Assembly: GCF_988243305.1 (NCBI RefSeq)
Contig: NZ_OZ547137.1
DNA from: a plasmid
Strand: one strand, 5' to 3'
DNA length: 64,000 nt
Shown: positions 5,215 through 56,463 of the stretch, one piece after another
How positions within the stretch are numbered: the stretch's first letter is position 1
How the letters are laid out: the number at the start of each line of letters is the position of its first letter
Made by a program: the position numbers and the translations under genes
Notes under the pieces: model-generated
What the model was told of the DNA's origin: nothing
Seen by the model: only the letters and a program-made list of their open reading frames with translations
Database searches by the model: none

Positions 5215-7082
5215 AGATCGGGATAGGGGCTGATCTCACGATTAGCCTCCTCCCACACCACCGTACATACGGGTCCGTATACGGCAGTTCGGTTATGTTT
5301 ATCGTCGCCTGCCTATAACTCCGGTAGGCCCAGTCTGACGAACAGGCGATTGGGAAGTGCTATGCTCAGTGCCGGACTACAGCTTATCCGCCATTGCTTA
5401 TGGCAACTCCCTACCGTTTGCGCTGCAAGGTCTTTGCTTACTCCCCGTCTGCGCAACTCTTTGAAGCGCTTGCTGCCCGTTTTCCACTGTTTCCACAGGA
5501 CACTTCGCAACCTTCGCCTTATCCACCTGTTCAGATCTCTCATCAGCGTTTGCCACTGGTTCAGTCCATAGTAGCTTTTCCATCCCGTCAGATATCGCTT
5601 TAACGGTTCGATAAGCTGCTCTAGGCTTTTGCCCGTGTTACGCCCCGTCAGTTCTCTTATCCGGGTTTTGAACCGCTTCACCGATTCCGGCAACACCACA
5701 CACCACACCTTTCTGCCCCTCCTGAAGCTGTAACCCAGGAACTTACGCGTCTCCGGAAGCGCTACCGCGCTCTTCTTCGCGTTGAGCTTCAGCTTCAGTT
5801 TCCGGTTCAGCCAGTGCGTCAGCCCCGCCATCATACGGTTGCCTGCCCGTTCACTCTTCACATACACATTACAGTCGTCTGCGTAGCGGGCGAACTTCAG
5901 GCCGCGTTTCTCAAGTTCCTTATCGAAGTCATCCAGCAGCAGATTCGATAACAGTGGCGACAGTGGGCCGCCCTGCGGCGTCCCTTCTGTCACCGGCATT
6001 ACCAGACCCGCTTCCATCACACCTGCATTCAGGTACCCGCGGATAAGTGACAGCACCCGTTTATCCGATACTCGTTTCGCTATCCGGCTCATCAGTACAT
6101 CGTGATTCACCCGATCGAAGAACTTTTCCAGATCGAGGTCAACCCCCCAGCTGTAGCCCGACTCGATGTATTTCTGAGCCTGCTTCACTGCCTGATGCGC
6201 CGAGCGTCCGGGCCGGAACCCGTAGCTGCTGTCGCTGAACGTCGCATCCCACTGTGCCTGCAACACCTGCATCATCGCCTGCTGGATAAAGCGATCCACC
6301 ACCGTCGGGATGCCCAACAGACGTTCGCCGCCGCCGGGCTTCGGGATAGTCACTCTTCTTACAGGGGATGGGCGGTAGCTGCCGGACAGCAGTTGCGCTT
6401 TCAGTTCCGGCCAGTGGTGTCTCAGATAGTCCGGCAGTTCGCTTACGCTCATGCCGTCGGCTCCCGCCGCACCTTTATTGGCCTTCACTCTTTTCAGGGC
6501 ATGCCTGAGGTTGACTGGTTCGCAGATGGCTTCCATCAGCCACGCTGTTGACGATGGACTTTCTCTGGTCGTCGGTGCCTGCACGGTTTCAGCCCCCTGA
6601 GAACCGGCGTCAGGGGCTTCACCCCGTCTTCCTGCATCAGGGTCGCGATACGTTTTCTGCTGCATGACCGTTCAGAACCTCCGCTGATACTCGTCACTCA
6701 TTACCGTTCGGGCCTTCAGACGCGCCTGTCCTACTATGCCCTCTGCTGACTCCTGTCCGCCGGTCAGCGCACCTTACGGTACGCTCAGTTCTGAATACAG
6801 AACGCCAGACAGGCCTCCCGGGGTAAGCTCAGCCGCTTTCACCACACACCTGCCCAATCTACCACCCCGGCTCTTGATGGTTATGGCCTTTGCAATCAAT
6901 GGCTTGCTCCGCCAGCCGGGTAGGCCTCATATCGGATTTCTGTTCGTCAGGTCATGGTTTTGCTCCACGCTTCCTTCAGATCCCGCCTCACGACGGCACC
7001 CTTGCGCTTCACGAGTCCTTCGCCACCATCAGGCTGGACAGGGGACTTTCACCCCCGAGCTGCTGAGCATGCCCGGCACACC
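5215..7082 (-). mobile_element. group II intron (bacterial class C-like; boundaries approximate)
   Basis: 5-prime end GTGTGCCGGGCATG... on the minus strand sits right after a terminator hairpin; domain V-like stem-loop (rc of 5255..5292) and domain VI downstream of the IEP ORF. Confidence 0.75.
5313..6665 (-). CDS. group II intron-encoded reverse transcriptase/maturase (no endonuclease domain evident)
   Basis: 450 aa with RT motifs (GIPTVVDRFIQQA, FARYADDCNVYV with YADD) and a C-terminal maturase X domain. Confidence 0.9.
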   Translation of the reverse strand: MQQKTYRDPDAGRRGEAPDAGSQGAETVQAPTTRESPSSTAWLMEAICEPVNLRHALKRVKANKGAAGADGMSVSELPDYLRHHWPELKAQLLSGSYRPSPVRRVTIPKPGGGERLLGIPTVVDRFIQQAMMQVLQAQWDATFSDSSYGFRPGRSAHQAVKQAQKYIESGYSWGVDLDLEKFFDRVNHDVLMSRIAKRVSDKRVLSLIRGYLNAGVMEAGLVMPVTEGTPQGGPLSPLLSNLLLDDFDKELEKRGLKFARYADDCNVYVKSERAGNRMMAGLTHWLNRKLKLKLNAKKSAVALPETRKFLGYSFRRGRKVWCVVLPESVKRFKTRIRELTGRNTGKSLEQLIEPLKRYLTGWKSYYGLNQWQTLMRDLNRWIRRRLRSVLWKQWKTGSKRFKELRRRGVSKDLAAQTVGSCHKQWRISCSPALSIALPNRLFVRLGLPEL

Positions 7083-44453: not shown

Positions 44454-46262
44454 CTAAAGCATTAGATCTTCAAAATTCAGCGTATGGCTGTGCGGCTTTT
44501 TGCGGAAAGACAGCTCGTTTATACGAAGCTTAAGTGGCATAGGGCAGATCACGCCACTGAATATGCAGGTGCCGGTTGCAAGCGTTGGAATAGATTCTTC
44601 AGTCATGCGGTCTATATAGGAAACGGATTTTTCAATAGCATACAGATCGTTCTGATTTATCAACCGGTGAATGAAATAGTTATGTGCCTGAGAAATGATA
44701 GTCGGGGAGATATCGTTTGGTCGCTGACTGGATATCGTCACAAAGACGCCAAATTTTCTGCCCTCCTTAATTATCTCTTCAAACGTTTCGAGCCGATAAT
44801 CCTTCCAGCTTTCTGATTCCCTGAACGAGGTGTTCGAAAGGATATTGTGTGCTTCGTCTATGATGAGATGGAGAGTGGACGGTACCTTATCCATTTTTTT
44901 TGCTGAATAGGCCCATTTGGCCATTAAAAGTGGTAGCGTTTTTTTCATGGTCAGATTGACCATATTAAGGTTCAGGACAACAAAGTTCGTTTCTGCCCAG
45001 ATGGTTCCGCCGGACGCAGTATTGAAAATTTTACGAGTATCTTTTTTCAGTCCGCTCATTCGATTGATGACAGGAGAAAGATGTTCAGGATTTGAGCGAC
45101 TTGAAAGATATTCAATAATTAGCTGAACATACATATAGTCCAGCAACTCTTCCATTATATCGTCGGGAAATTCATAATTCTGAGCCATCTGGTACATATT
45201 GCACTGATGAGTATTTTCTTCATTAGAAAAGTAAACGCCTGTCTTGGTTCGCCATACGCCGCCGTTGTTATAAAAAAATTCAATATCTGCTATCAGATCT
45301 TCGTCCTTCAGTACAGGACGGAATAAATCAATCAGGTCGTCACTTTTTTTCTTTTCGCAACCAAACAGAGTTTCGGTGACCCGCCGTTTCAGAATTTCAC
45401 GAAAATATGACTGAGGGTTCAGCTTCGACTCCACTCGCTTTTTGAATTCAAGCACTCGCTTCAGAAAAGGTTTCTGCGTTTTGTCGGTGGCATCCGTCAG
45501 GACAGAGATAATCTCATGCTCAAGCAGTATCTCAGCAGGCATCGGAATGCGATCACCCTCTTCATCATGCGTGCTAAGATTATAAACAACCTTGTCGCGC
45601 GTAATGCAGCTTCTCCCACCATATTCACCATTGAAATCAAATAAAAGAAACCGTGACCGACTTCTGAATCCTTCGCCTAGTAGGTTTTTCAGGGCCTCAT
45701 AGCCATGCTGATAAAGCGCGGCCAGAGTATTGGACTTGCCGCTGCCAGTATTACCGAAGATGGCGATGTGTGAGTTGAGAAGGCCGCTTATCGGGAGAGT
45801 GATATCAATATCTTCGAGATCGGTGCGCGAAAAATTCAGCCCGGACTCGCCCGCTGGCGCGATCGAGTGGATAAGATGAAGTTGTTCCTCAGACATCAGA
45901 AAAACTTCATTGCCGATAAGGGGCAACTCGCGAGTTCCACCAGTAAAGCGCCCGTTCCGGTCAATATAGCCTGCCAGTGAGGCTGTAAGATAGCGGCGGA
46001 AGCGAAGCGAATCGCTTCCGCTACCAACAGGTGATTTTTCCTCGACAATCTTCTCGGTTTCTACCTTTGCAATCAGACTCATGAATCCTTTTTTGACTTC
46101 GATGAAACTACCTACTGAAACATTTTTGAGCACCTTACCGTGATAAAAAAGATCACTCAGATTTTTATTTTTATCGACAAGCACACTGAGTGTTCTGCCC
46201 GATACTTCACGAACCTCACCGATCCTTAATACTGCTTCTTCGTTAACAAAAGCGGAGGTCAT
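44454..46262 (-). CDS. herA: HerA-like (FtsK/HerA superfamily) ATPase, partner of the SIR2 gene
   Basis: 602 aa; Walker A GNTGSGKSN and Walker B LIIDEAHN; start overlaps the upstream SIR2 stop (ATGA). Confidence 0.75.
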   Translation of the reverse strand: MTSAFVNEEAVLRIGEVREVSGRTLSVLVDKNKNLSDLFYHGKVLKNVSVGSFIEVKKGFMSLIAKVETEKIVEEKSPVGSGSDSLRFRRYLTASLAGYIDRNGRFTGGTRELPLIGNEVFLMSEEQLHLIHSIAPAGESGLNFSRTDLEDIDITLPISGLLNSHIAIFGNTGSGKSNTLAALYQHGYEALKNLLGEGFRSRSRFLLFDFNGEYGGRSCITRDKVVYNLSTHDEEGDRIPMPAEILLEHEIISVLTDATDKTQKPFLKRVLEFKKRVESKLNPQSYFREILKRRVTETLFGCEKKKSDDLIDLFRPVLKDEDLIADIEFFYNNGGVWRTKTGVYFSNEENTHQCNMYQMAQNYEFPDDIMEELLDYMYVQLIIEYLSSRSNPEHLSPVINRMSGLKKDTRKIFNTASGGTIWAETNFVVLNLNMVNLTMKKTLPLLMAKWAYSAKKMDKVPSTLHLIIDEAHNILSNTSFRESESWKDYRLETFEEIIKEGRKFGVFVTISSQRPNDISPTIISQAHNYFIHRLINQNDLYAIEKSVSYIDRMTEESIPTLATGTCIFSGVICPMPLKLRINELSFRKKPHSHTLNFEDLML

Positions 46263-46905
46263 TTCATACCTCCAAGAAAGCTGGTTATAATTTCATTCAT
46301 CTTTTTGAAGTCCAATGGGGCTCCAGGAGTAAAAACCACATCAACATTGGAATAATCACGGAATTTATCAAGGAATAGGTCTTTAGCCGCCTCATTGTAA
46401 GCGAATATAACAATTTTGAGCGTGGCGTTTCGCAGTGCTTTCTTGGTAAGAGTTTCAATATGCTCATCCGCAAAAGAAAATCCGAAAACTATAAGCAAAG
46501 AGCCTTCTTTATCCAGCTCATTTGAATAAGTCCGTAGCAGGTCGTAATACACGTTTTCAAGTAAGGTTTCACGAAATTTATCCTTTCGCGGCAGAACCAG
46601 TTGATGTGACATAACCCAGTCCTGCTTCTCCTTTGGTGTATTGAACGCAACTGGCTTCATATCCTTAATGGAATAATAGATTTCCTTATCATAGCTATGC
46701 CAAGAAAGGGAACCATGCAGCTTGATGAGATTCACCGTAGGTAGTTCCACGCTGTAATTATAAAGGTTCCCGGTTGCGTGTATGGTCTGATAAAAACATT
46801 TGGTATCGAATACTGTCCGGTTGTAAATATCGGCGCGCTGACGGAATCCTGATCTTACCCAGCAATAGTGGACACGCGGCTAAGTGAGTAAACTCTCAGT
46901 CAGAG

Positions 46906-47214
46906 GTGACTCACATGACAAAAACAGTATCAACCAGTAAAAAACCCCGTAAACAGCATTCGCCTGAATTTCGCAGTGAAGCCCTGAAGCTTGCTGAACG
47001 CATCGGTGTTACTGCCGCAGCCCGTGAACTCAGCCTGTATGAATCACAGCTCTACAACTGGCGCAGTAAACAGCAAAATCAGCAGACGTCTTCTGAACGT
47101 GAACTGGAGATGTCTACCGAGATTGCACGTCTCAAACGCCAGCTGGCAGAACGGGATGAAGAGCTGGCTATCCTCCAAAAGGCCGCGACATACTTCGCGA
47201 AGCGCCTGAAATGA
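46906..47214 (+). CDS. insE: IS3 OrfA
   Basis: Identical protein to 7625..7933. Confidence 0.95.
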
Positions 47215-48077
47215 AGTATGTCTTTATTGAAAAACATCAGGCTGAGTTCAGCATCAAAGCAATGTGCCGCGTGCTCCGGGTGGCCCGCAGCGGCTGGTAT
47301 ACGTGGTGTCAGCGGCGGACAAGGATAAGCACGCGTCAGCAGTTCCGCCAACACTGCGACAGCGTTGTCCTCGCGGCTTTTACCCGGTCAAAACAGCGTT
47401 ACGGTGCCCCACGCCTGACGGATGAACTGCGTGCTCAGGGTTACCCCTTTAACGTAAAAACCGTGGCGGCAAGCCTGCGCCGTCAGGGACTGAGGGCAAA
47501 GGCCTCCCGGAAGTTCAGCCCGGTCAGCTACCGCGCACACGGCCTGCCTGTGTCAGAAAATCTGTTGGAGCAGGATTTTTACGCCAGTGGCCCGAACCAG
47601 AAGTGGGCAGGAGACATCACGTACTTACGTACAGATGAAGGCTGGCTGTATCTGGCAGTGGTCATTGACCTGTGGTCACGTGCCGTTATTGGCTGGTCAA
47701 TGTCGCCACGCATGACGGCGCAACTGGCCTGCGATGCCCTGCAGATGGCGCTGTGGCGGCGTAAGAGGCCCCGGAACGTTATCGTTCACACGGACCGTGG
47801 AGGCCAGTACTGTTCAGCAGATTATCAGGCGCAACTGAAGCGGCATAATCTGCGTGGAAGTATGAGCGCAAAAGGTTGCTGCTACGATAATGCCTGCGTG
47901 GAAAGCTTCTTTCATTCGCTGAAAGTGGAATGTATCCATGGAGAACACTTTATCAGCCGGGAAATAATGCGGGCAACGGTGTTTAATTATATCGAATGTG
48001 ATTACAATCGGTGGCGGCGGCACAGTTGGTGTGGCGGCCTCAGTCCGGAACAATTTGAAAACAAGAACCTCGCTTAG
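47211..48077 (+). CDS. insF: IS3 OrfB
   Basis: Identical protein to 7930..8796. Confidence 0.95.
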
Positions 48078-48734
48078 GCCTGTGTCCATATTACGTGGGT
48101 AGGATCATCCATCATTCAGAATGACGTTGTTATTTTTAACCGCTGCATCCTCAATGAACAAATCATAGTTAGTCGTAAAGAGGTTGATACGCCGCGGTAG
48201 CAATCCAGTCCGCCGCCTCGTCAGAAGCATTTCTAATGCACGCATGAGCTTCGCGTAGTTGTTTTGTGTCGATACGACATCATCTATTAAAGTAGGAAGG
48301 ATTACCTCTGCGGGCAAGCTTCGCTTCAGGAGGACGTTGTTTGCCTTCCATACATTGTCCAGAAAAGACTCAGATTTACTGAAGTATTCATCATCCTTTC
48401 CGGCGCGGACCAGAGCCTCAAGCTCGCTTTCAATATCACCTAACACGCTGATTGCAGGCAGCGATGCTCCTGAGCCAATGATGAAATTGATGTTTGCTGA
48501 TTGAAATATGCGCTCAAAATATTCACGATCTCTGTCCTGCCCGTAGTAAGCCCGATAAGTCGCCACGCTGTGCCTTTCCTTAAATATCGTAGATAAGATG
48601 TATCTTACATGTTTCAACAAGTGATGCATCCTGTTTAAATTTCATTCTCTGACTCATATACAAACGCAGCTAAACGAATCAGGTAGGTAGTTTCATTGCT
48701 TCCGGCTTCACCAGAAACCGGATCTGACCTAGAA

Positions 48735-48818
48735 AAGAGAAAGAGTGTATGTAAGTTCTGTACTGTATGTATGGTATGTATGAATTGTATTGTATGTATT
48801 ATTTGTATTGTATGTATT
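48735..48818. repeat. degenerate TGTATG / TTGTATG tandem repeat array in a divergent intergenic region
   Basis: gtgtatgtaagttctgtactgtatgtatggtatgtatgaattgtattgtatgtattatttgtattgtatgtattgtgtat, between the SIR2 start and the KfrA-like gene. Confidence 0.8.
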
Positions 48819-48877
48819 GTGTATTTTTCATACCGGGCGTACGATGGCGCCATTCCCTGAGAAACCGGAGCCAGACC

Positions 48878-49489
48878 ATGACATCCCTCTCCCCGGACAC
48901 CGTCCGCCGCATTGAAGACGCCGCCGCCGCCCTGATCGCCGCCGGCACCCCGAACCCGACCAACGAGCAGGTCCGTCAGCACCTCGGCGGCGGCTCGCTG
49001 TCCCACATCTCCCCGGTGATGCGCGCGTTCCGCGCCCGCCAGCGCGAGCAGGCCACTGAGCAGGCCACGCCCCTGCCGCCGGAGCTGGCGCAGCTGCTGA
49101 CCGGCCAGCTGGGGCTGCTGTGGCAGGCGGCCGTGAAACAGGCTGAAGCCGGGGCCCTGGCGGCGCGCGAGCAGGCCGACGACGACATTGCCCGGGCCGA
49201 CAAGGAGCGGGATGAGGCGCTGGCGAACGTGGCCGCGCTGGAAAGCGAGCTGGCGGTGCTGCGCGAGGTGGTGGCCGAACGTGACCGCCTGCTGCAGGAG
49301 GTACGCGAGCTGCGCGCGGAAGCGCTGCCGCTGCGCGAGCAGGTGGCCCGCCTGACCGCCACCGGCGAACACCTGGCGGCGCAGCTGCAGGACACGAAGG
49401 CGGAGCTGAAGGAAGCCCGGGAGGACGGCCGCCAGCTTCAGACCGAACTGCTGGCTCTGGCCCGCCAGGACGGGAAGGTGAAGAAATGA
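48878..49489 (+). CDS. KfrA-like DNA-binding protein (N-terminal HTH, long Ala/Arg/Glu-rich coiled coil)
   Basis: MTSLSPDTVRRIEDAAAALIAAG...GGGSLSHISPVMRAFRARQ resembles the KfrA N-terminal domain; ~70% GC; start at ATG 48878 with upstream GGAG. Confidence 0.65.
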   Translation: MTSLSPDTVRRIEDAAAALIAAGTPNPTNEQVRQHLGGGSLSHISPVMRAFRARQREQATEQATPLPPELAQLLTGQLGLLWQAAVKQAEAGALAAREQADDDIARADKERDEALANVAALESELAVLREVVAERDRLLQEVRELRAEALPLREQVARLTATGEHLAAQLQDTKAELKEAREDGRQLQTELLALARQDGKVKK

Positions 49490-50106
49490 GACAGGAAAGA
49501 GTATTACGTATAAAGGCATTTCGACGGGCACTGGAGCTTGGTGGCGGTGAACGGGCTGACGGGTGTCGTCATTTTCCCCGCTGGAAAACGGAACTGAGGA
49601 ATTTCCCGCACGGCAGCTGCGATTTAGCCAGCAATACTCTGGCGTACTACCTCAAGGAACGAGAGAGATGCCATCCGTGCATCATTTTTATGGAAGGGAA
49701 CGCTGGCTTTCATGAAGCGGAAAACTCAACAGTTCACGGGCATGTCATCGTATTGCTGGACGGAGAGTACATCGATTTGACGCTGGATCAATTCGACGAA
49801 TATCCGGACTACATTCCTTACGAACCAGTCGAATCTGACGGGCAGATTGGTAAGCTGTTGCGTAATATCATGAAGCATGAGGACCAGGTAAAAACCCGCC
49901 AGATTGATCTCGATGGTGGCGAAGAGCTGTATGCCTGGTTACGCGATACCGCCGACGAAGTGCTGGCAGCAGATCCGGAATGGCAGGCCCGGGAACGGTC
50001 GATAGAAGAAGCAAGGGAAGCCGCTATTACGGTGTTCCCGTTTCTGTCTGACGTGCAAAAAACTGAGTGCGAACAGGGCCCGGACAGTCAGGAGGCTGCC
50101 AGATGA
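49486..50106 (+). CDS. hypothetical protein (206 aa), translationally coupled
   Basis: ATGA overlap with the KfrA-like stop; no family recognised (possible Cys/His catalytic-like core SCDLAS...HGHVIVLLDGEYIDL). Confidence 0.5.
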   Translation: MRQERVLRIKAFRRALELGGGERADGCRHFPRWKTELRNFPHGSCDLASNTLAYYLKERERCHPCIIFMEGNAGFHEAENSTVHGHVIVLLDGEYIDLTLDQFDEYPDYIPYEPVESDGQIGKLLRNIMKHEDQVKTRQIDLDGGEELYAWLRDTADEVLAADPEWQARERSIEEAREAAITVFPFLSDVQKTECEQGPDSQEAAR

Positions 50107-50891
50107 AGATTTATCATTACACTGACCTGAACGGCCTGAAGGGCATCATCGAATCAGGCTCACTGTGGGCGACGCACTTTTCCTTTCTCAATGACAGTAA
50201 TGAGCTGACTCACGGCATGAACTGCCTTGAGAATGCCCTGCAGTACCTGAGGGACGACTTTAACCCGAAAACCCTTAAGTTCATCGAACAGGCACTGACG
50301 CACTTCAGAATGCACCGGGCAGCTCACGTCTATAACCTTTCGTTCTGTCTCGAACCCGACCTGTTAAGCCAGTGGCGGGGTTATGGGAGCTCTCAGGGCG
50401 TGTGCCTGGAATTTGATGATGAAGAGCTGCTTGCCTCGCTGGAATTAACTCATTATCAGGTGTTTAAAAACCGGGTACTCTATACCAAAGAGGATTCCAC
50501 GGTTGAAGCCCGGAACGAAATCCTCGCCTTCTTTCGTCAGCCACATGTTCAGGCGGCAATAAATGCAGATGTAATGCATGAGATGATTCAGGCAACCAGA
50601 CTGGCACACAGCCTGCCGCCTTTTTTCAAGAATGACGGTTTCCAAGAGGAGCAGGAGTTCAGGATGGTAATCCTTCCGGAAAGCCCTTTTGAGGGTGTCA
50701 ATTTTCGTGTCAATGACAGCGGTCTGGTACCATATCTGATCATTAAAGCAAAAGACAAGCTGCCACTGACAAACGTCAGAATTGGTCCCCGCAGTAACAG
50801 AGCAATGATGATGGACGGGATTTCATTCCTGTTGCAGAGCAGGGGGTATACCAGTACACGGATTTCGTTTACTGAGACGCCGTTCCGGTAA
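50103..50891 (+). CDS. DUF2971-like protein (262 aa)
   Basis: N-terminus MKIYHYTDLNGLKGIIESGSLWATHFSFLNDSNE resembles the DUF2971 signature; ATGA overlap with the upstream ORF. Confidence 0.55.
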   Translation: MKIYHYTDLNGLKGIIESGSLWATHFSFLNDSNELTHGMNCLENALQYLRDDFNPKTLKFIEQALTHFRMHRAAHVYNLSFCLEPDLLSQWRGYGSSQGVCLEFDDEELLASLELTHYQVFKNRVLYTKEDSTVEARNEILAFFRQPHVQAAINADVMHEMIQATRLAHSLPPFFKNDGFQEEQEFRMVILPESPFEGVNFRVNDSGLVPYLIIKAKDKLPLTNVRIGPRSNRAMMMDGISFLLQSRGYTSTRISFTETPFR

Positions 50892-50926
50892 ATTCAGTTA
50901 AGAAGCACAAACTTCTAGGGATCAGT

Positions 50927-51667
50927 ATGTTGAATAAAGTTTCACAAATTAATTTGGCCAAAATACTGGCTGAAAAATTTAACGAAGGTGACTGGCAGGA
51001 GCTGTTTGCTGTTACAGATTGTGAAGACGTTCCGGAAGGACTAAATCAATTCTACCGGCATGTTCACTGGGACAACCCTGAGCTGAAAGGGGTGGCCATC
51101 GCTGCCATAGAAAGCACTCTGGCCAGGGACGCTGATAATCTTTCTAAGATCTGGGCGCTGGATAATGTTCAACGCTTTATCAGCATTGCCAATACTGAGT
51201 TATTCAATGAAATAAAGAACATTGTGAATCAGAACGGGCAAAGAAATGTTTCGGCAGCACCAGTGAAAAATGTAAATGAAAACATTTACCAGGCCTTAGA
51301 AGATGCGGAAGTGTTGCTTAAAAATAATGGGCCACACCGGGCATATGATCGTGTTCATACAGCTCTTCATGCTTCATTAAGACAAATGTGTGCCAACCAT
51401 GGAATTGCGACCAATAGTACAAATGATAATGTTCCAGGCTTGCTTTCTCTGATAACTGCACATCTCAAAGACCTGCCTGATGATGGAAGAAATGAAGATG
51501 TGTTTAAAATGTTGAGATCATCTGCCGCAATACTTCATGGGATCAATAACCTGCGTAACAATTACAGCATGGCCCATCCTACTGAAACTTTGCTGAATGA
51601 AGCCGATGCCCGTTTTGCCATAAATCTGGTTCGTTCCATCATGACTTATGTTGATGAGTTGCTTTAG
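50927..51667 (+). CDS. hypothetical protein (246 aa), possible Abi_C-like C-terminal domain
   Basis: C-terminal HGINNLRNNYSMAHP region is loosely reminiscent of abortive-infection C-terminal domains; inference only. Confidence 0.45.
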   Translation: MLNKVSQINLAKILAEKFNEGDWQELFAVTDCEDVPEGLNQFYRHVHWDNPELKGVAIAAIESTLARDADNLSKIWALDNVQRFISIANTELFNEIKNIVNQNGQRNVSAAPVKNVNENIYQALEDAEVLLKNNGPHRAYDRVHTALHASLRQMCANHGIATNSTNDNVPGLLSLITAHLKDLPDDGRNEDVFKMLRSSAAILHGINNLRNNYSMAHPTETLLNEADARFAINLVRSIMTYVDELL

Positions 51668-51955
51668 TTTTAATAAAAATATGAGACTCACAGCGAACAG
51701 ATAGAACTTCAACGAAGAAGTGAAGTACGGCCAGAATTTCGAGCTCTGGCCCTCCGGAAGATGCCGGACAGACGCATCATCCCGTCGCGGCCGCTTCCAT
51801 TTTTGTGTGTACTCAACCTGCCGGATCAGGATGGCGGCAGGATTTGCACCCGATGTTCCAGCCGCCTTGCCTCTTCCTGATCCCGGTATTCCCTCGCCTT
51901 TTTCATCATTTCTGCCGTTGGCTCCTGCAGTTTGTCGAGAAACTCCTTAGATCGT

Positions 51956-52768
51956 TTAGCCACCGACTGAAGGGAGACACTGTCCGTCCTGCCGGTATTG
52001 CGATTGGTGTAAACCAGGCGGGTAAGGGGGTCTGGTTAACTCCTTCCCTTCCATAAAGCGTTTGAAGATCCAGAGATATATATCAACCAGCTCCAGCCCT
52101 GCACTTTTTGTACCCGACTGGAAAACCAGCGGTTCAGCCGGCATGTTCGTCACATCCATGACCGGTAAACCGGGACCGTGTACCCACGGCATCTCACGTA
52201 TCTGGTAATAGAACTCCCTCAGCTCCCGCTGGGTGGTGTTGAACTGTGACTGCTGGTCCACAACGATGTCGGCTTTGCGATTTGGTGCTCCCAGGCGGGA
52301 ACAGATACCGCGCAATACGAACTGAAATCCAACCATATTGGGCATGATCTGCAGCTTTTGTTTACCGGTTTTGCAGTTATATCCCAGTTCGTCAAAGTGG
52401 GTCATCGCCCAGGACAACGCATCGGTAATCAATTCAATGTAACGGCGGTCCCCCAGGGTATGAACGCGCGCAAGCAGCTCACTGCAGACCTCACTGAACA
52501 GAGATGAGGACCTTCCATCATGGGCTTCGAGGCGGGCACGCCACGCTTTTTCAGCCAGTTCATTATCGAACAGGCTTGCCAGATTCAGTAGCAGCGGGTA
52601 ACGAAAGGGGGTCCAGTAGGCAACCCTGGGCACTGCAGGATTCATCCCCTGATCGAAGAACGAAATAATGGCGTGATCCCGTTTAACGACCAGCCAGACA
52701 TCAAACCGTATCCGGTGCTTCTTCTGCAGGACAAGCAGCGTATCAACCACCTCATCAAGGCGGTGCAT
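51956..52768 (-). CDS. hypothetical protein (270 aa), N-terminus uncertain
   Basis: Long ORF with a 66-aa overlapping ORF upstream in another frame (52755..52955); C-terminal LELVDIYLWIFKRF is loosely DUF3800-like. Confidence 0.4.
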   Translation of the reverse strand: MHRLDEVVDTLLVLQKKHRIRFDVWLVVKRDHAIISFFDQGMNPAVPRVAYWTPFRYPLLLNLASLFDNELAEKAWRARLEAHDGRSSSLFSEVCSELLARVHTLGDRRYIELITDALSWAMTHFDELGYNCKTGKQKLQIMPNMVGFQFVLRGICSRLGAPNRKADIVVDQQSQFNTTQRELREFYYQIREMPWVHGPGLPVMDVTNMPAEPLVFQSGTKSAGLELVDIYLWIFKRFMEGKELTRPPYPPGLHQSQYRQDGQCLPSVGG

Positions 52769-53280
52769 GCCAAGCTCTGCGGCGTGCAGACGCTGTACTT
52801 GTCAACGCCACGATCTTTGACCGTCTTATATCGACAGAGTTATCCGGCATGGTGTCAATCCGTTCACAATTTTTCCATCGGAGCAGCCTACCACCGGTGA
52901 TAACCTGACTTTGCCTGTAGTTTGTATACACAACCCCTGGCATTGAAACAAACATATGAAGTGTACTTCGGATATGACTGTACGCTCAGGAAGTACGGCA
53001 GATTCCGTCAAAAATTACCTGTAAAGACAGACATCAGAAAAACAGTGCTCGCCGCAGACCGGTGACCGGGCGAAGCCCGCGAACCGGCGAGGAAGCGCAA
53101 TGGATCTGTAGTTACAGTGAGCAGGTACGCCCTGAAGCCTTCATAATCGGTAGTGTATGCTGTTTTTCTGGAATGATTTATCCACATATCCAGAGGCCCG
53201 ATCCAGTAAACAGATCCATGAATGATCAACAAAGGATCCATTAAAGATCCCCATATCGCTGCAAACCTTGTCATTAATGG

Positions 53281-53420
53281 TCCGGGAGCACGATCACATA
53301 AGCTGTGGCATGTTACTGATAAACTGTAACAGGTTCATGATAAGCTGTATTCAGTAATACATATACTGCCGTAAGTTAATGACATAAACTATGGTCAGTA
53401 TGCCAGACTCAGTTGTTAAA
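53281..53420. promoter_or_regulatory. RepFIB upstream iterons (direct repeats)
   Basis: Repeated cataagctgtgg / gataaactgtaac / gataagctgtattc units. Confidence 0.7.
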
Positions 53421-53553
53421 TACAGGCTGCAGGTTTTTCTTCAGTCAGTTGACGGGGTTCTGACACACGATTTTCTGTTTATTCTTTTACTGTCCACAGG
53501 CAGGAGGCTTTCTGGAAAACGAAAATTCAGACATCAAAAAACTGTTCGGCGAG

Positions 53554-54531
53554 GTGGATAAGTCGTCCGGTGAGCTGGTGACACTGACACCAAACAATAA
53601 CAACACCGTACAACCTGTGGCGCTGATGCGTCTGGGCGTCTTTGTACCGACCCTTAAATCACTGAAGAACAGTAAAAAAAATACACTGTCACGTACTGAT
53701 GCCACGGAAGAGCTGACACGTCTTTCCCTGGCCCGTGCAGAGGGATTCGATAAAGTTGAGATCACCGGCCCCCGCCTGGATATGGATAACGATTTCAAGA
53801 CCTGGGTGGGGATCATTCATTCCTTTGCCCGCCATAACGTAATTGGTGACAAAGTTGAACTGCCTTTTGTCGAGTTTGCAAAACTGTGTGGTATACCTTC
53901 AAGCCAGTCATCCCGCAGGCTGCGTGAGCGCATCAGCCCTTCCCTGAAGCGCATTGCCGGTACCGTGATTTCGTTTTCCCGTACCGATGAGAAGCACACC
54001 CGGGAATATATCACCCATCTGGTACAGTCAGCCTACTACGATACTGAGCGGGATATTGTGCAGTTACAGGCCGATCCCCGCCTGTTTGAACTGTACCAGT
54101 TTGACAGAAAAGTCCTTCTCCAGCTTAAGGCGATTAATGCCCTGAAGCGACGGGAGTCCGCCCAGGCACTCTACACCTTTATAGAGAGCCTGCCCCGGGA
54201 TCCGGCACCGGTATCGCTGGCGCGGCTGCGTGCACGCCTCAATCTGAAGTCTCCTGTATTTTCCCAGAACCAGACGGTCAGACGGGCAATGGAGCAGTTG
54301 CGCGAGATTGGATACCTTGATTACACGGAGATCCAGCGGGGGCGGACAAAATTCTTCTGTATTCACTACCGGCGTCCCCGGTTAAAAGCGCCGAATGATG
54401 AGAGTAAGGAAAATCCGTTGCCACCTTCACCTGCGGAAAAAGTCAGTCCGGAGATGGCGGAGAAACTTGCCCTGCTTGAAAAACTGGGCATCACACTGGA
54501 TGACCTGGAAAAACTCTTCAAATCCCGCTGA
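53554..54531 (+). CDS. repA: RepFIB replication initiator RepA
   Basis: 325 aa [65 protein letters not shown]...; iteron arrays on both sides. Confidence 0.9.
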
Positions 54532-55913: not shown

Positions 55914-56210
55914 CTAACACCAGTTGAGATGAGAGCCGGCATCCTGATGCTGGATTAATATACGGATAATAATAATTTCAGTATCAGTCTGCAGAAAATA
56001 AAGCATATGTCGTTCAACGGATAGTGCGAATATGTATTCCCCCAGTTCAGGGCGGGGAGTACCGATATTATGATCACTCATAACCTGAAAAATATCGGAT
56101 ATCTGATTAATATATTTGTCTGCTTGATCCTCACCAAAATGGCGGCACCCGTAATACCAGATATCCTCCAGATCCTGACTGGCTTTCGGTGTGAGTTTAA
56201 CGGTTTTCAC
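55914..56210 (-). CDS. parE: ParE/RelE-family toxin
   Basis: 98 aa, DLEDIWYYGCRHFGEDQADKY...; overlaps the upstream antitoxin gene. Confidence 0.8.
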   Translation of the reverse strand: MKTVKLTPKASQDLEDIWYYGCRHFGEDQADKYINQISDIFQVMSDHNIGTPRPELGEYIFALSVERHMLYFLQTDTEIIIIRILIQHQDAGSHLNWC

Positions 56211-56463
56211 CGGCCCCCCTCGTGCCAGCTTTAACTTTCTTCAGGAACGCATCTTTTTCCCACACCACAGGTTCACCGCTGCTCAGGCCTTCTGCCAGTA
56301 AATCCCGCAGGGCCTGGAGACGTGACTCTGCCTGTTTCTCGCGCAGGAGACGAAGTGACTCGCGGATTACTTCACTCTGTGTACGGTAATCACCTGATTC
56401 TATGAGAGATTCTATGTACTCCCAGAGTTCATCTCCGAGAGCAACTGTCATTGTTCTGGCCAT
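56197..56463 (-). CDS. parD: ParD-like antitoxin
   Basis: 88 aa, N-terminal RHH-like MARTMTVALGDELWEYIESLIESGDYRTQSEVIRESLRLLRE. Confidence 0.8.
   Translation of the reverse strand: MARTMTVALGDELWEYIESLIESGDYRTQSEVIRESLRLLREKQAESRLQALRDLLAEGLSSGEPVVWEKDAFLKKVKAGTRGAGENR

Follow-up and report, generated by a model that had tools for sequence, protein, structure and literature searches.

The minus-strand interval 51826-52798 of the window, by which we mean the entire 64-kb stretch of DNA analysed here, is with little doubt a non-functional pseudogene: truncated at its 5′ end, internally deleted and frameshifted towards its 3′ end, it represents what is left of a gene for a solo 377-aa DUF3800 protein and is situated at a recombination scar. 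The window derives from an IncF-type plasmid of E. coli whose RepFIB initiator gene occupies 53554-54531, and a first-pass annotation of this DNA had described the locus as an unassigned gene that is preceded by a short overlapping reading frame and is either frameshifted or provided with an unusual start. How far homology extends, which lesions are present, that an intact parent exists and that sister copies have decayed polymorphically were all observed directly, while the loss of function and the direction of transfer are inferences.

Identity and provenance of the remnant

Three minus-strand reading frames cover the locus: a 270-aa ATG ORF from the ORF list (51956-52768), which contains LELVDIYLWIFKRF, a 66-aa ATG ORF in a different frame (52755-52955), and, just downstream of the 270-aa ORF, a 45-aa ORF (51826-51963) which carries the natural stop. 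The description of the 270-aa ORF as weakly DUF3800-like at its C-terminus was borne out: Pfam PF12686 matched it at 14.6 bits (E 0.055), below the cut-off of 21 bits and at profile positions 62-148 only, and the homology is real, the tblastn comparison with an intact DUF3800 protein having an E value of 8e-161, well past anything expected by chance. The intact proteins WP_000545983 and WP_000545985, as well as P0122, served as tblastn queries against the window. With the first two, reference residues 51-311 matched 52798-52029 at 82% identity in the same reading frame as the 270-aa ORF, and a second HSP placed residues 311-372 in the frame of the 45-aa ORF at 74% identity, the latter ORF being the out-of-frame C-terminus of the same DUF3800 gene and a third piece that the first-pass annotation had overlooked. 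DUF3800 homology begins abruptly at codon 51, corresponding to 52798, and residues 1-50 were found nowhere in the 64-kb window by tblastn in all frames at E values up to 100, the best hit having an E value of 0.18 over 14 aa. By tblastn and the PGAP coordinates, the remnant corresponds to codons 51-377 of the 377-aa parent.

A search with the frame-corrected translation retrieved 520 relatives and established a family match, though the PF12686 score of that translation was 14.2 bits (positions 62-148) and below the 21-bit gathering cut-off, as compared to 28 bits over the full profile (positions 1-148) for an intact homologue. By these scores the remnant is a fragment of PF12686 by descent, at 82-99% identity to members, and not a full member. 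Full-length relatives are nearly all 377 aa in length and were found in Escherichia, Salmonella, Serratia, Pantoea, Enterobacter, Cronobacter, Yersinia and other Enterobacterales, and more distant E. coli plasmids bear intact 377-aa DUF3800 genes.

The relic is already known, being annotated in RefSeq and very common in E. coli IncF plasmids, and the term unassigned does not hold for it. PGAP labels an interval equivalent to 51826-52798 as 'DUF3800 domain-containing protein; frameshifted; incomplete; missing N-terminus', and its pseudogene coordinates in NZ_CP128580, NZ_CP083881 and pANT_60 map exactly to 51826-52798. The RefSeq pseudogenes QUS00_RS01095 (NZ_CP128580.1), LCE26_RS23100 and ACQVMN_RS26175 share this interval and its lesions at 99-100% identity and differ from the window copy in nothing substantive. 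DNA corresponding to 51700-53300 is present at an identity of at least 99% in hundreds of plasmids; at least 80% of this segment is covered by 425 plasmid records in PLSDB, and by 425 records in 421 of the 5426 complete E. coli genomes (approximately 8%). The first-pass annotation had named the lack of a family match and the absence of the ORF from related plasmids as what would refute it; a match was obtained and the ORF was found in hundreds of related plasmids.

The intact parent was identified as WP_044722458.1 (P0122; 377 aa; 'MULTISPECIES: DUF3800 domain-containing protein [Enterobacteriaceae]'), which was found in the 90%-identity cluster of the 270-aa product and is nearly identical to the remnant over the shared part. 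At the DNA level the remnant and the parent gene differ by 10 substitutions and 2 indels, which amounts to approximately 99% identity, and owing to this young age of the remnant the division of the substitutions into 6 synonymous and 4 non-synonymous changes cannot alone prove relaxed selection. WP_044722458.1 is encoded on IncI-gamma/K1 plasmids of E. coli and Salmonella, a complete example being located on an IncI-gamma/K1 conjugative plasmid, and the contigs that carry P0122 present the gene order KfrA_N, a 206-aa ORF, DUF2971, Abi_C (AbiJ-like) and a convergent intact DUF3800 gene, which is identical to the gene order of the window. The window copy shares with this gene approximately 99% DNA identity over codons 51-377 and the same flanking block, but is without codons 1-50, the upstream region and 12 nt encoding FDQV, and has one additional C at codon ~311.

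In a blastn comparison with two of the loci collected (L022, the parent locus, and L026), the 4.1-kb block comprising KfrA_N, the 206-aa ORF, DUF2971, the AbiJ-like gene and the DUF3800 remnant (48719-52799) was found to be 93% identical over 4093 nt to IncI-gamma/K1 plasmid backbone, with the match ending exactly at 52799. At the sequence level this points to recombination between incompatibility groups, by which the block may have entered the RepFIB region of an IncF plasmid. In the course of events that we propose, the block from an IncI-complex plasmid would have been fused, with the breakpoint at codon 50/51 of the DUF3800 gene, to the mosaic lying near RepFIB in an IncF plasmid, and the gene would thereby have lost its promoter, its start codon and its first 50 residues, including the DE motif and the strands β1 and β2. 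A two-gene system composed of the DUF3800 and AbiJ-like genes was considered and rejected, as the genes neighbouring intact DUF3800 homologues vary and those at loci L003, L004 and L011-L014 are different ones.

Lesions, decay and coding capacity

The actual frameshift is an additional C in a homopolymer of the minus-strand gene, which reads C5 at 52026-52030 and C4 in the intact parent (L022) and in one sister copy (L016, CP057674.1); unshifted forms of 313 aa (P0125 and P0133) also occur. Its position is at the 3′ end of the gene, at codon ~311, and it splits the relic into the 270-aa and the 45-aa ORFs. The 270-aa ORF starts at the first in-frame ATG, which is parent codon 61, and ends at a premature stop resulting from the frameshift, its final ~25 residues (PPYPPGLHQSQYRQDGQCLPSVGG) being an out-of-frame translation. 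The second indel, a 12-nt in-frame deletion at 52655-52662 (near 52658, minus strand), removed one copy of a TTCGATCAGG-type tandem repeat of the form FDQ(V/G); the parent repeat reads TTCGATCAGGTG-TTCGATCAGGGG, a single copy is left in the window, and four conserved columns were lost with the deleted FDQV.

Nine sister loci were aligned to the window. The indel pattern of the window was present in five of them, two of which are 100% identical over the interval, while each of the remaining four carries a differing lesion: a 2-nt deletion at 52785-6, C4 and consequently no frameshift, a 1-nt deletion at 52132, and a 277-nt deletion at 52023-52299. Variants were likewise encountered among the protein clusters, and comprise, besides the 313-aa unshifted form, a 307-aa form with a compensating deletion (P0006), forms of 243 and 202 aa that carry a different frameshift, one of 221 aa with an internal deletion, and one of 214 aa (P0113) in which the frame of the 66-aa ORF has become fused to the DUF3800 body by a deletion. 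The truncation and the 12-nt deletion came first and the varied secondary lesions later; the 12-nt deletion would have arisen by slippage in the already truncated relic, and the +1 C frameshift would subsequently have generated the 270-aa and 45-aa ORFs in the lineage of the window. That sister copies carry differing additional indels is indicative of neutral decay. An intact full-length homologue, disabling lesions and independent further lesions in sister copies, the features by which a pseudogene is recognized, were all found, and the PGAP annotation concurs.

Nucleases with an RNase H-like fold possess a central mixed β sheet, of which β1 bears the first catalytic carboxylate, and structurally resemble RNase H, RuvC or Piwi. 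Of the 143 columns that are at least 90% conserved among 34 aligned relatives, 27 are missing from the remnant, among them those of the invariant residues D6, E7, G9, T11, G12, D17 and G26. The 50 missing codons encode D6-E7 together with the strands β1 and β2 of the predicted RNase H-like core, and neither the remnant nor the window as a whole contains this DE motif, which is invariant in the 34 relatives. At the C-terminal end a QxxD-type motif was found to be kept in the form GLELVDIYLW, its E290 and D293 being invariant in relatives, with E replacing Q.

The coding capacity that is left raises the question of whether a truncated 270-aa protein, or a 313-aa one where the frame is unshifted, is expressed via read-through or a cryptic promoter and has kept some function or gained another, such as that of a catalytically dead decoy or a dominant-negative partner of intact DUF3800 nucleases on competing IncI plasmids. 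We consider this improbable, even though the ORF is unbroken from the ATG at 52768, the C-terminal helix bearing the ELVD motif is retained, some GenBank submitters annotate the ORF as a protein, and its exact product is called on at least 1000 contigs, in line with the occurrence of the locus in some 8% of complete E. coli genomes. Such abundance is explained by hitch-hiking beside the RepFIB replicon, and a protein of this kind would lack the DE motif, which is invariant, as well as two strands of the core, and would be encoded by DNA that has acquired independent frameshifts or deletions at four of the nine sister loci and in several protein clusters. Moreover, no clear Shine-Dalgarno sequence precedes any of the three candidate ATGs, and a promoter and terminator scan of 51600-53600, a crude consensus match, disclosed no promoter-like site upstream of the relic on the minus strand. 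It is a shade less probable again that the relic is kept next to RepFIB as a decoy in conflict between plasmids, its catalytically dead product or its transcript hampering the intact DUF3800 nuclease that competing IncI-complex plasmids encode; a retained role of this type is unlikely because sister copies carry independent disabling indels.

Even less credence can be given to the view that the lesions are sequencing or assembly errors and that the gene is intact in the real plasmid. A C5 homopolymer is a classic site of error, but hundreds of complete, independent assemblies have the same C5, 12-nt deletion and junction, the sampled loci with the indel pattern of the window include two without a single difference, and a 5′ truncation is impossible as a base-calling error. 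Resequencing, as had been suggested earlier, is unnecessary because identical lesions recur across these assemblies.

The pseudogene reading concerns the copy in the window, while the intact protein is in our inference a nuclease, acting in defence or in conflict between plasmids. DUF3800 proteins are described as predicted nucleases of RNase H-like fold, marked by a DE motif at the N-terminal and a QxxD motif at the C-terminal end, and as the effector of type VII retrons (PMC7736814), and DUF3800 has been described as an accessory nuclease at Cas12a2/V-A2 and VI-F loci, as TPR-DUF3800 (PMC10910872, PMC12669027), while eleven RNA motifs, Rfam DUF3800-I to XI, are associated with it (PMC5737381). 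In contrast to the retron and CRISPR representatives, the enterobacterial plasmid form is a solo protein of 377 aa with large helical insertions and with no reverse transcriptase, TPR or Cas partner, and the window copy is entirely without the DE motif. None of the Rfam DUF3800 RNA motifs was detected in the window, at L003 and L004 or at the parent locus L022 using covariance models at E values up to 5. The intact protein had only a spurious BrxL match in PADLOC-DB v2 (E 0.015 over 40 residues), an intact homologue matched no meaningful family in NCBIfam, and a sequence search of the PDB with the 34-sequence profile gave no match.

The truncation junction and the 66-aa ORF

The truncation junction is located at 52798-52800, where DUF3800 homology stops and an unrelated mosaic starts (plus strand TGTCAACGCCACGATC...); rightwards from 52799 the sequence of that strand is TGTCAACGCCACGATCTTTGACCGTC.... 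The boundary segment 52799-52845 (plus strand TGTCAACGCCACGATCTTTGACCGTCTTATATC...) is common to at least five plasmids with unrelated DNA on the left-hand side. Apart from the DUF3800 relic, four alternative left-hand contexts were seen (L005, L006, L008 and L009), namely a colicin Ia fragment (on pSTEC719_4), a hypothetical gene, IS1 and further mosaic. As one sharp boundary is joined to unrelated left-hand sequences, it marks the edge of a recombining module adjoining RepFIB, and 52799-52845 has the look of a mobile-element end or of a hot spot for recombination close to RepFIB. The sequence TGTCAACGCC... (52800) is single in the window, in which no inverted-repeat partner was found; a chromosomal match and L009 put it in the vicinity of PapB/FocB fimbrial regulators and a truncated tyrosine recombinase. 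A 32-nt piece of the boundary sequence is also present on an E. coli chromosome near a PapB/FocB regulator. Beyond the boundary, 52 nt at 52864-52915 share 84-90% identity with an interior portion of IS3-family transposase genes and are apparently a piece of an IS lodged in the scar, upstream of the relic, and widely conserved RepFIB-proximal DNA begins at 52914.

The 66-aa ORF extends over all of these elements: the final 15 codons read DUF3800 sequence out of frame, the middle lies over the IS3-like fragment and the 5′ end falls in RepFIB-proximal DNA. On this composition it is a chance reading frame across the recombination scar, accidentally made up of three unrelated fragments. The ORF has no Pfam match, its exact sequence is absent from a collection of 15 billion proteins, it is left unannotated in every RefSeq copy inspected, and unannotated ORFs of 60-109 aa are numerous in the same 4-kb stretch. 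Its internal ATG at 52850 is the counterpart of the annotated start of the chimeric CDS containing the colicin Ia fragment on pSTEC719_4, and the use of this ATG in such a chimera shows only that the frame is opportunistic. The chimera is a PGAP-called protein of 388 aa (L005, 1897-3060; NZ_CP041415.1), in which the first 20 codons are homologous to the ATG-52850 frame of the window and are followed by the central receptor-binding and the pore-forming C-terminal domains of colicin Ia.

The 66-aa ORF does precede the 270-aa ORF in another frame, as first described and as seen for both in the ORF list, and the two overlap by 14 nt on the same strand, but the notion that they form one gene by way of a frameshift, whether an error or programmed, or of an unusual start has next to nothing in its favour, and the limits of homology already refute it: no tblastn similarity links the 66-aa ORF to the N-terminal 50 residues of DUF3800, intact relatives encode their N-terminus in the frame of the body, the overlap coincides with a recombination boundary found in unrelated contexts, and P0113, a single metagenomic or assembly variant with the 66-aa frame fused in-frame to the DUF3800 body, arose by a secondary deletion in which parent residues ~51-170 were lost. 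The earlier description was correct in so far as the gene is damaged, yet the overlap is neither the site of a frameshift nor an unusual start but the truncation junction at 52798/52799, the true frameshift, which the earlier description had missed, being that in the C5 tract.

Neighbourhood and significance of the relic

The location of the relic had been taken to suggest another defence-associated cargo gene. Its neighbours are indeed of the defence type, comprising the AbiJ-like Abi_C/HEPN gene, which matches PADLOC AbiJ at 3e-09, DUF2971 and SIR2-HerA, whereas the locus itself is a relic and not a working cargo gene. Within 44454-48077 a 163-aa ORF with a SIR2_2 domain (46259-46750, minus strand) lies directly upstream of a 602-aa HerA/DUF87 ATPase (44454-46262, minus strand), and an ORF for an IS3-type rve transposase is located at 47211-48077 (plus strand); this segment looks like a SIR2-HerA defence pair with a SIR2 gene interrupted by an IS. 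At 55914-56463 (minus strand), downstream of the RepFIB integrase, the window has ORFs of 98 aa and 88 aa where near-identical plasmids have a ParD/RelE-ParE toxin-antitoxin pair that is annotated as frameshifted pseudogenes. Elsewhere in the window, Rfam matches with gathering scores were obtained at 6711-6997, 16232-16303, 24893-25017 and 25916-26014, and represent group II intron domains (in two places), the Hfq-binding sRNA STnc490 and the ALIL pseudoknot, a frameshift element of IS3 type.

The recognition of the relic removes a false unknown gene with an unusual start from the locus and relocates the frameshift from the 5′ overlap to the C-run at the 3′ end. The relic records a recombination event, which can be dated, between an IncI-complex backbone block and the RepFIB region and, given its occurrence in approximately 8% of complete E. 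coli genomes, provides a lineage marker for IncF mosaics. The intact solo 377-aa protein, a predicted nuclease that is encoded elsewhere and not in the window, is not listed in catalogues of defence systems, although its family supplies both a retron effector and a CRISPR accessory nuclease.
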